DNA of 64,000 nucleotides from Escherichia coli (GTDB taxonomy: Bacteria > Pseudomonadota > Gammaproteobacteria > Enterobacterales > Enterobacteriaceae). The DNA lies in the NCBI RefSeq assembly GCF_051903065.1, contig NZ_CP178438.1. One strand, written 5' to 3'. Position numbers and translations under genes: made by a program. Positions 20,742 through 47,169 of the stretch are shown piece after piece (within the stretch, counting starts at the first letter, position 1; every line of letters begins with the position of its first letter). The notes below the pieces were generated by a model. The model worked only from the letters and a program-made list of their open reading frames with translations, was not told where the DNA came from and did not search any database.

Positions 20742-20818
20742 GCTATTTTTGATAGTTCTTGCGGCTAATATGCTCTATATAGTGATGTTCCGATGACTTA
20801 TGACTATATGGGGCAAAT

Positions 20819-21934
20819 ATGGTTACGCCAGTAAGCATCAGCAATTACATATCTCTTCCTGATGATTTTCCCGTTCGTAATATTGCACCGCAGGTAAAAG
20901 AAGTTTTAAAGGATTTTATTAATGCACTTAGTACAATAATATGTGATGAAGAGTGGCGCACGTCTTTAAACATCAACTCAGCCACAAAAAAGATATTTAA
21001 TAATCTTGACAACTTATCATATATTCAGAGGGCTTCTTTTCGGGGTAACGACACGCTATACAATGAAAAGGTTCAGTTTAAACTCACTTATCCCGCCAGG
21101 AATGGAAGGCACAAAGAAAATATTGAATTTCAGGTAGTAATAAATTTAAGCCCTATTTATTTAGATAATTTCCGCCATGATGGAGAAATTAATATTTTTT
21201 GCGCTCCCAACCCAAAGCCTGTTACTATGGGGCGCGTATTTCAGACCGGCGTCGAGCGTGTGCTCTTTCTGTTTCTGAATGATTTTATTGAACAATTCCC
21301 AATGATCAACCCTGGCGTACCCATCAAAAGAGCGCATACACCACATATTGAATCCCTGCCTCCGGATCACCATACCGCTGCAGATTACTTACGCCAGTTT
21401 GATTTGCTTGTCCTGAATTTTATCTCTCGCGGTAATTTTGTTATACTCCCCCGATTATGGAATAACTCTGAGGTTCACAGATGGTTCGTCAATAAAGATC
21501 CTAACTTGATCACCGCCATTCTCGACATAACGGACAGCGAATTAAAAGAGGATTTATTGCAAAGCCTGATGGATTCATTAGGTTCTAACAAACATGTACT
21601 ACCCGAAGTCTGCATCTGTTTTTTATCCCTTTTAGCAGAACAAGAATCTCCTCATTTTCAGGACTTGTTTTTATTTTTCGCCAATATGTTGTTACACTAT
21701 CACCAATTTATGAATCCCAATGAAAGTGATTTGAATGACGTGTTGATGCCAGCATCATTAAGTGATGATAAAATTATCAAACATATGGCGCGCAAGACCC
21801 TCAAACTGTTTGTAAAAAATGAAACACCGCCAAAAGTTACTCATGAAGACCTGGTGAAAAACAGGCCTCGCTCCCCTGTCAGACCACCTATACCCGCAAC
21901 CTCCAAAACGCCAGACATTCCTGATCGTCATTAA
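20819..21934 (+). CDS. yneK: Uncharacterised protein YneK
   Basis: 371-aa ORF, AT-rich codon usage suggestive of horizontally acquired DNA; K-12 gene order. Confidence 0.7.
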   Translation: MVTPVSISNYISLPDDFPVRNIAPQVKEVLKDFINALSTIICDEEWRTSLNINSATKKIFNNLDNLSYIQRASFRGNDTLYNEKVQFKLTYPARNGRHKENIEFQVVINLSPIYLDNFRHDGEINIFCAPNPKPVTMGRVFQTGVERVLFLFLNDFIEQFPMINPGVPIKRAHTPHIESLPPDHHTAADYLRQFDLLVLNFISRGNFVILPRLWNNSEVHRWFVNKDPNLITAILDITDSELKEDLLQSLMDSLGSNKHVLPEVCICFLSLLAEQESPHFQDLFLFFANMLLHYHQFMNPNESDLNDVLMPASLSDDKIIKHMARKTLKLFVKNETPPKVTHEDLVKNRPRSPVRPPIPATSKTPDIPDRH

Positions 21935-21952
21935 ACCGTGATGTTTACCGTC

Positions 21953-21984
21953 TCTCTGACGCGTGAAAGAATCAGCGTCAGAGA
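21953..21984. repeat. Strong inverted repeat downstream of yneK (possible terminator or protein-binding site)
   Basis: TCTCTGACGC ...12 nt... GCGTCAGAGA, 10-bp perfect stem; no clear T-run follows. Confidence 0.35.
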
Positions 21985-22084
21985 AACGGAAAACGCGATC
22001 CAGATCACAAATGCATTGTATTCACATCATTAACCGTTTTAAGATCATTTCATCACTTTTTCGCAACTCACCCGATAATCTGTT

Positions 22085-23275
22085 ATGACAACAAACACTG
22101 TTTCCCGCAAAGTGGCGTGGCTACGGGTCGTTACGCTGGCAGTCGCCGCCTTCATCTTCAACACCACCGAATTTGTCCCAGTTGGCCTGCTCTCTGACAT
22201 TGCGCAAAGTTTTCACATGCAAACCGCTCAGGTCGGCATTATGTTGACCATTTACGCATGGGTAGTAGCGCTAATGTCATTGCCTTTTATGTTAATGACC
22301 AGCCAGGTTGAACGGCGCAAATTACTGATCTGCCTGTTTGTGGTGTTTATTGCCAGCCACGTACTGTCGTTTTTATCGTGGAGCTTTACCGTTCTGGTGA
22401 TCAGTCGCATTGGTGTGGCTTTTGCACATGCGATTTTCTGGTCGATTACGGCGTCCCTGGCGATCCGTATGGCTCCGGCCGGGAAGCGAGCACAGGCATT
22501 GAGTTTAATTGCCACCGGTACAGCACTGGCAATGGTATTAGGTTTACCTCTCGGGCGCATTGTGGGGCAGTATTTCGGCTGGCGAATGACCTTCTTCGCG
22601 ATTGGTATCGGGGCGCTTATTACCCTTTTGTGCCTGATTAAGTTACTTCCCTTACTGCCCAGTGAGCATTCCGGTTCATTGAAAAGCCTCCCGCTATTGT
22701 TCCGCCGCCCGGCATTGATGAGCATTTATTTGTTAACTGTGGTGGTTGTCACCGCCCATTACACGGCATACAGCTATATTGAGCCTTTTGTGCAAAACAT
22801 TGCGGGATTCAGCGCCAACTTTGCCACGGCATTACTGTTATTACTCGGTGGTGCGGGCATTATTGGCAGCGTGATTTTCGGTAAACTGGGTAATCAATAT
22901 GCGTCTGCGTTGGTAAGTACGGCGATTGCGCTGTTGCTGGTGTGCCTGGCACTGCTGCTACCTGCGGCGAACAGTGAAATACACCTCGGGGTGCTGAGTA
23001 TTTTCTGGGGGATCGCGATGATGATCATCGGGCTTGGTATGCAGGTTAAAGTGCTGGCGCTGGCACCAGATGCCACCGACGTCGCGATGGCGCTATTCTC
23101 CGGGATATTTAATATTGGAATCGGCGCGGGTGCGTTGGTAGGTAATCAGGTAAGTCTGCACTGGTCAATGTCGATGATTGGTTATGTGGGCGCGGTGCCT
23201 GCCTTTGCCGCGTTAATATGGTCAATCATTATATTTCGCCGCTGGCCAGTGACACTCGAAGAACAGACGCAATAG
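22085..23275 (+). CDS. ydeA: MFS sugar (arabinose) efflux transporter
   Basis: 396-aa 12-TM MFS ORF; K-12 gene order. Confidence 0.85.
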
Positions 23276-23278
23276 TTG

Positions 23279-23302
23279 AAAGGCCCATTCGGGCCTTTTT
23301 TA
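23279..23302. terminator. Bidirectional rho-independent terminator between convergent ydeA and marC
   Basis: AAAGGCCCATTCGGGCCTTTTTT: GC stem flanked by A-run and T-run. Confidence 0.7.
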
Positions 23303-46992: not shown

Positions 46993-47169
46993 TGTTCATT
47001 CCACGGCCAAAAACAGAGAAAGGAAACGACAGAGGCCCAAAAGCTCGTTTTCAGCACCTGTCGTTTCCTTTCTTTTCAGAGGGTATTTTAAATAAAAACA
47101 TCAAGTTACGACGAAGAAGAACGGAAACGCCTTAAACCGGAAAATTTTCATAAATAGCGAAAACCCGCG

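Follow-up and report, generated by a model that had tools for sequence, protein, structure and literature searches.

A conserved inverted repeat without a U-tract between yneK and ydeA of Escherichia coli: a candidate protective 3' stem-loop

The window analyzed here is a stretch of 64,000 nucleotides from Escherichia coli (NCBI RefSeq assembly GCF_051903065.1, contig NZ_CP178438.1), read on one strand from 5' to 3'. Within it, RefSeq annotates yneK (20819–21934, + strand, 371 amino acids, putative protein YneK) and ydeA, encoding an L-arabinose MFS transporter, as the genes on either side of an inverted repeat; these are the names that an earlier sequence-only reading of the window had given them. 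The yneK stop codon TAA occupies 21932–21934, and the 150 nt from there to the ydeA ATG are untranslated. The inverted repeat lies just after the 3' end of yneK, and no RefSeq feature is annotated beneath it. Over the 350 nt from 21835 to 22184, the window is 100% identical to strain A16 and 97.7% identical to MG1655; the window is not K-12.

The core of the repeat consists of a 5' arm, TCTCTGACGC (21953–21962, + strand), and a perfectly complementary 3' arm, GCGTCAGAGA (21975–21984, + strand), separated by a 12-nt loop, GTGAAAGAATCA (21963–21974, + strand), in which folding predicts a short inner stem of 3 bp. The perfect 10-bp arms and the 12-nt spacer described by the sequence-only reading were therefore recovered as stated, and its distance of 19 bp from the yneK stop agrees with an arm that begins at the 19th base, with 18 nt in between. 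The size of the repeat had been understated. The core is continued by a strain-variable lower stem, formed by GTTTACCGTC (21943–21952, + strand) and AACGGAAAAC (21985–21994, + strand), so that in this strain the extended arms (21943–21962 and 21975–21994) reach 20 nt each and are complementary at 18 of 20 positions (90%).

Perfect 10-bp repeats with spacers of 3–20 nt were found nine times at six loci in the window, compared with 1.3 ± 1.5 in randomized sequence, and the bare 10-bp repeat is accordingly only mildly unusual. Repeats as good as the extended 18/20 arms occurred at two loci in the 64 kb and in none of 100 randomizations; the extended repeat is not a product of chance. The only other repeat of at least 18/20 in the window lies at 47017–47073, where AGAGAAAGGAAACGACAGAG and CTGTCGTTTCCTTTCTTTTC are 17 nt apart. 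The predicted fold of the + strand RNA (66 nt) has a free energy of -30.4 kcal/mol (z = -5.9), and that of the - strand -33.9 kcal/mol (z = -6.5), with none of 200 shuffled sequences as stable in either case. Among the 80-nt 3' flanks of the 35 long ORFs in the window, that of yneK was the most stable, above flanks containing textbook terminators (-31.7 kcal/mol vs -20.1 kcal/mol for the ydeA/marC terminator). All haplotypes described below retained a stem of at least 10 bp and between -20 and -30 kcal/mol. A second hairpin without a clear T-run, CTCTATATAGT...ACTATATGGGG, is located between the ptrR stop and the yneK start (20769–20813), and the 80-nt flank that holds it folds at -21 kcal/mol.

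The sequence around the stem is U-rich before it and A-rich after it, the reverse of the order in an intrinsic terminator. The 12 nt following the full stem, GCGATCCAGATC, contain two U's and no U-run, the A-rich flank directly after the core alone contains none, and no T-run follows the stem on either strand. A terminator scan of 21700–22300 returned zero terminator-like sites. The sequence-only reading had noted the missing T-run and had suggested that the element might be something other than a terminator; the first point was borne out, and the second holds for a canonical intrinsic terminator. An intrinsic terminator, which needs a U-rich tract within 0–2 nt of the stem-loop, was rejected on both strands; lacking such a tract, the hairpin cannot release RNA polymerase by itself. 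A related proposal is that the hairpin acts as a weak, non-canonical terminator or pause hairpin that slows or partly stops polymerase arriving from ptrR-yneK and thereby insulates the ydeA promoter. The presence of a very stable hairpin between a gene end and the next promoter is consistent with this role, as are the canonical terminators that relatives carry at the corresponding place. Intrinsic termination depends on a U-rich tract for release, and the two U's of GCGATCCAGATC and the empty scan argue against the proposal. Possible intermediate states between intrinsic and Rho-dependent termination, noted by Dar and Sorek (PMC6061677), would leave some room for it, and we consider it improbable.

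The distribution of the element was examined by database comparison. With the 350-nt query, the interval was found in 5,417 of 5,426 complete E. coli genomes, and the element was also present in E. albertii. The 61-nt hairpin query matched a median of one and a maximum of two places per genome in 4,301 genomes, indicating a single-copy element. REP/BIME and other dispersed palindrome families were rejected on this basis, and neither Rfam nor repeat searches revealed a repeat family; the Rfam search of 21500–22500 returned only chance-level matches to eukaryotic and archaeal snoRNAs and miRNAs. An integron attC site was also rejected, since it needs the arrangement RYYYAAC...GTTRRRY and the element, GTTTACC...GGAAAAC, has the opposite one, with the R/Y pattern unmet. 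Ends of the IS200/IS605 or MITE type, which call for similar hairpins or inverted repeats on both sides of the inserted DNA, were rejected too, because the hairpin at 20769–20813 is not evidently similar by eye and the arms are not copied elsewhere in the window.

Two major haplotype groups were observed, K-12-like (4,301 genomes) and B2-type (1,142 genomes, including 1,116 identical to UTI89). The B2 strains lack about 1 kb of yneK, in a deletion that stops ~20 nt short of the end of the gene, but retain the hairpin (about 1,100 genomes). An alignment of 10 distinct haplotypes, including E. albertii, was used for the analysis of variation, and ten more sequences were read. A 9-bp core, TCTCTGACG/CGTCAGAGA (21953–21961 with 21976–21984), is paired in all 10 aligned haplotypes, and its arms are kept in all ten further sequences. 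Variable columns were distributed very unevenly: 1 of 18 in the core arms, 9 of 14 in the loop with its closing pair, and 14 of 18 in the lower stem (Fisher p = 5e-6). The length of the loop is constant in every haplotype and in E. albertii. The sequence-only reading had proposed conservation across E. coli as a check on the repeat; with presence in practically all E. coli and in E. albertii, a near-invariant 9-bp core and a variable loop, the outcome was positive.

In E. albertii, both core arms are identical to those of E. coli, whereas 5 of 14 loop positions are changed and an 8-nt indel lies in the 5' flank; YneK is 68% identical, the last part of yneK is about 70% identical at the DNA level, and the lower-stem pairing is absent. 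In E. albertii and in the B2-type haplotype, the 3' core arm starts with C, and the top pair is thereby opened. The K-12 type has a C·A mismatch at the core base; a change from A to G in the 3' arm turns it into C-G in the B2-type haplotype, and a change from C to T in the 5' arm turns it into U-A in one lineage. The lower stem shows one G-C to A-U double change, together with pair-breaking changes in O157 (G to A), K-12 (T to A) and the B2 type (C to A). Formal covariation is weak, with one pair altered on both sides and 32 of 500 shuffles matching the observed score. From these comparisons, the conserved object is a dyad of 9–10 bp around a centre of 12–14 nt that is free in sequence and constant in length, and the 20-bp stem of this window is strain-specific. 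Invariant arms alone cannot distinguish a function in RNA from one in DNA.

The sole change within the 9-bp core, found in the UTI89-type strains (about 1,116 genomes), converts a C-G pair into U-G. This pair is maintained only in RNA of the + strand and becomes an A·C mismatch on the - strand, which speaks against a hairpin working in an antisense transcript that runs from the ydeA promoter region into yneK. Such a - strand function would agree with the slightly better fold of that strand, with a promoter-like site (22042 to 22015) that points towards the hairpin, and with the O157 change, which makes a G-U pair on the - strand only. It is disfavoured by the lack of a U-tract on that strand as well and by the absence of an antisense 3' end here in the supplements of Adams 2021, and we regard it as highly improbable.

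The gene upstream of the repeat has a restricted distribution. The GC content of yneK is 32–46%, compared with 50–54% in its flanks, YneK has no Pfam family, and among 5.8 billion proteins its homologues were restricted to E. coli, Shigella and E. albertii. One metagenomic contig, under the label "MAG: Caldithrix sp." (SMXE01000224.1), carries ptrR-yneK-ydeA at 97–100% amino-acid identity to the window, and almost certainly represents E. coli contamination of a metagenome bin. Among 80 ydeA loci of other Enterobacteriaceae, yneK was confined to E. coli and E. albertii. In E. whittamii, Escherichia sp. E1V33, SCPM-O-B-8794, Salmonella and several Citrobacter loci, ptrR adjoins ydeA, and in the first three it runs straight into the ydeA upstream block. 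Genomes that have yneK and genomes that lack it carry different PtrR C-termini. Escherichia sp. MOD1-EC7003 combines an E. coli-type ptrR end with about 75 nt in place of yneK.

The junction between this lineage-specific DNA and the older sequence can be placed at the hairpin. Reliable homology to yneK-less Escherichia restarts at GAAACGG(C)AAAA, directly 3' of the core 3' arm and approximately where the 3' half of the lower stem begins, so that the hairpin forms the right edge of the lineage-specific DNA. In E. whittamii, E1V33, SCPM-O-B-8794 and MOD1-EC7003, the sequence that aligns with the motif GAAACGG(C)AAAA(T/C)G is the 3' end of ptrR; the lower 3' arm is thus old sequence, which codes for the PtrR tail in the yneK-less Escherichia relatives. 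A derivation of the whole hairpin from a decayed ancestral ptrR 3' end, suggested by a collinear MAFFT alignment, was rejected because a shuffle test upstream of GAAACGG gave p = 0.1–0.98. The ancestral ptrR ends fold no better than shuffled sequences (z about 0).

This position raises the alternative that the hairpin has no present function and was left behind by the DNA rearrangement through which yneK came to lie between ptrR and ydeA. A relic of this kind would persist because few mutations arise in it, or because repair templated by the palindrome restores the match between its arms. The location at the right edge of the yneK DNA fits this account, and the lower stem is eroding. The gene itself is decaying in many lineages and is often a pseudogene, as in the B2 deletion, an internal stop in O157:H7, and frameshifts in O111 and APEC. 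In opposition, the core arms vary much less than the 14 nt that separate them and the 18 nt that flank them, E. albertii has both arms intact although the neighbouring sequence has diverged by about 30% and contains indels, and the hairpin was retained in the B2 genomes that lost yneK. A functionless relic is therefore possible but unlikely.

The sequence between the hairpin and ydeA is distinctive in its composition. The untranslated tract at 21995–22072 (+ strand) is C-rich and G-poor, with 21 C against 8 G (C/G of 2.6–3.0), and the best 78-nt windows, starting at 21995–22007, reach a C/G of 3.0 when 1 is added to each count, the 99.7th percentile of the window. This tract may serve as a Rho loading region, and it coincides with the conserved ydeA upstream and promoter block. 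Between the hairpin and the ydeA ATG lie approximately 90 nt that show almost no variation in the aligned E. coli haplotypes and are recognizable across the Enterobacteriaceae. The C-rich tract is also present in species without yneK or the hairpin, and its composition consequently did not evolve for the termination of yneK.

Several sequence elements were identified within the ydeA upstream block. The likely -10 element of the ydeA promoter is TAAGAT (22040–22045), with a possible -35 element, TTGTAT (22016–22021), both read from the sequence. In 80 of 80 ydeA loci, a CRP-like dyad, mostly of the form TGAGA-N6-TCACA, precedes the ydeA ATG by about 91 nt; here it occupies 21994–22009 and its left half, CGCGA, is the most degenerate. 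Position C21994 is both the first base of this dyad and the last paired base of the extended hairpin. Three GATC (Dam) sites fall within 50 bp (21997–22000, 22003–22006 and 22043–22046), the third overlapping the candidate -10 element, and TTTAAGAT occurs in 51 of the 80 ydeA loci. Further downstream, the sigma-54 motif TTGGTGTGGCTTTTGCA inside ydeA (Bonocora et al. 2015, PMC4591121) is unchanged at 22410–22426. A bidirectional intrinsic terminator, GAAAGGCCCATTCGGGCCTTTTTT (23278–23300), serves both ydeA and marC, which converge on it, and it matches the published ydeA 3' end at K-12 position 1,618,247.

The proximity of the ydeA promoter also makes it conceivable that the repeat acts as DNA, with a dimeric or tetrameric protein bound to TCTCTGACG and CGTCAGAGA and modulating the transcription of ydeA or yneK. 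The half-site centres would be 23 bp apart and about 50 bp upstream of the candidate ydeA -35. Half-sites separated by two helical turns are unusual for a simple dimer. The invariant arms around a spacer of variable sequence and fixed length, E. albertii included, resemble an operator, the site lies upstream of the conserved promoter block, and the arabinose induction of ydeA has an unexplained mechanism (PMC3429515). In contrast, the element is single-copy in the genome, the ydeA orthologues of other genera keep the promoter block without the dyad, and the dyad has lost its symmetry in B2, where the U-G-type change is fixed. The specific regulators considered also failed to match. A PtrR (YneJ) operator was rejected, because the nearest likeness to its 15-bp box TTCACnAATnGAGAA, CTCTC-N6-GTGAA, is wrongly spaced and partly in the variable loop (judged by eye), and none of the nine PtrR ChIP-exo sites lies at yneK/ydeA. 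Sites for sigma-54/NtrC and for RpoS/RpoH were rejected, as the gSELEX peaks are located near the yneK start or inside ydeA and not at the hairpin. Cra-like half-sites in the loop (TGAA...TCAGC), likewise inspected by eye, have a spacing that is off by one, and the loop is variable. Taken together, we find an operator doubtful. More doubtful still is the narrower version, in which a DNA-binding protein that came with the yneK insertion, or evolved after it, recognizes the 9-bp dyad at its fixed 14-bp spacing and controls ydeA (sotB). If true, the operator would represent an Escherichia-specific control of the ydeA (sotB) sugar/drug efflux promoter and could bear on the unexplained arabinose induction of ydeA.

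The sequence-only reading had left the choice between a protein-binding palindrome and an RNA stability element. The protein part of that suggestion gained no positive support, and the RNA part fits better, given a position 18 nt after a stop codon, the U-G pair kept on the + strand, and the C-rich tract that follows. The best explanation, which we put forward tentatively and at somewhat less than an even chance, is that the hairpin belongs to the U-less 3' stem-loops by which Rho-terminated transcripts of E. coli are protected. Dar and Sorek (2018, PMC6061677) reported that the Rho-dependent transcripts of this species end immediately downstream of stem-loops that equal those of intrinsic terminators in stability. 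Such stem-loops lack a uridine tail, precede sequence with more C than G, and shield the RNA from PNPase and RNase II once Rho has terminated transcription diffusely further downstream. The stability of the yneK hairpin, its missing U-tail and the composition downstream agree with this class, and the selective conservation of the core arms counts in favour of the explanation. So does the situation in Citrobacter, where the ptrR-ydeA gap contains a hairpin after the upstream gene, followed in C. amalonaticus by a T-run.

Applied to this locus, the inverted repeat would act as + strand RNA and form a stable stem-loop in the 3' UTR of yneK; in the B2 strains, with yneK deleted, it would instead sit in a ptrR read-through transcript. 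The distance of the core from the stop codon would presumably be enough for it to stay folded while the ribosome terminates. Transcription would continue beyond the hairpin into the 150 nt of untranslated, C-rich and G-poor RNA, where Rho may load on the C-rich tract and terminate diffusely. The 3'-to-5' exonucleases PNPase and RNase II could then trim the transcript back to the base of the stem, which would block them and leave a stable 3' end.

The sequence-only reading had also suggested transcript 3'-end mapping as a check, and on this point the published data gave no support. No RNA 3' end near K-12 positions 1,616,896–1,616,927 was found in the supplements of Adams 2021, TERMITe 2025 and the TRS study of 2023; those of Adams 2021 were checked both for the gene name and for the K-12 coordinate, with ydeA at 1,617,028 as the anchor, and those of the TRS study do contain the ydeA terminator end. 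This absence, which would also suit a functionless relic, is weak evidence, because yneK was nearly silent in the RNA-seq dataset examined (base mean of 14 vs 222 for sad). The same low expression, together with the pseudogene state of yneK in many lineages, means that selection to stabilize its mRNA would be weak.

Most likely, the hairpin is an ordinary transcript-end hairpin that shields RNA from degradation and not a new kind of element. None of the papers retrieved by the literature searches, including those that name both yneK and ydeA, mentions it, and it is probably an undescribed instance of a U-less 3' stem-loop. As such, it would give the yneK transcription unit a 3' boundary and would add one protective stem-loop of this type at the edge of a recently acquired orphan gene. 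It also illustrates how an orphan gene can adjoin the promoter of the conserved ydeA efflux pump with a hairpin and an untranslated C-rich tract in between. Current understanding is not challenged by this interpretation, and its significance is modest.

The element can be compared with four known systems. With the local dyad operators, such as the PtrR box and marO, it shares perfect symmetry, conserved arms, a variable centre and a position upstream of a promoter, but its centre-to-centre spacing of 23 bp is unusual and the dyad is absent upstream of ydeA in other genera. As with REP/BIME elements, the palindrome is intergenic, follows a gene end and could act as a barrier to exonucleases; unlike them, it occurs at a median of one place per genome, and presumably its sequence has no resemblance to the REP consensus. 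The intrinsic terminators, exemplified by that of ydeA/marC 1.3 kb downstream, also place a GC-containing stem after a gene end, whereas the hairpin described here has no U-tract and its A-rich and U-rich flanks are reversed. Relative to the stem-loops of Dar and Sorek, the 12-nt loop is larger than typical, and no 3' end is listed for the locus in the three published datasets. In its other features it resembles that class: a stable stem-loop soon after a stop codon, with an energy in the range of intrinsic terminators, neither a uridine tail nor a preceding A-tract, and an excess of C over G directly after it.
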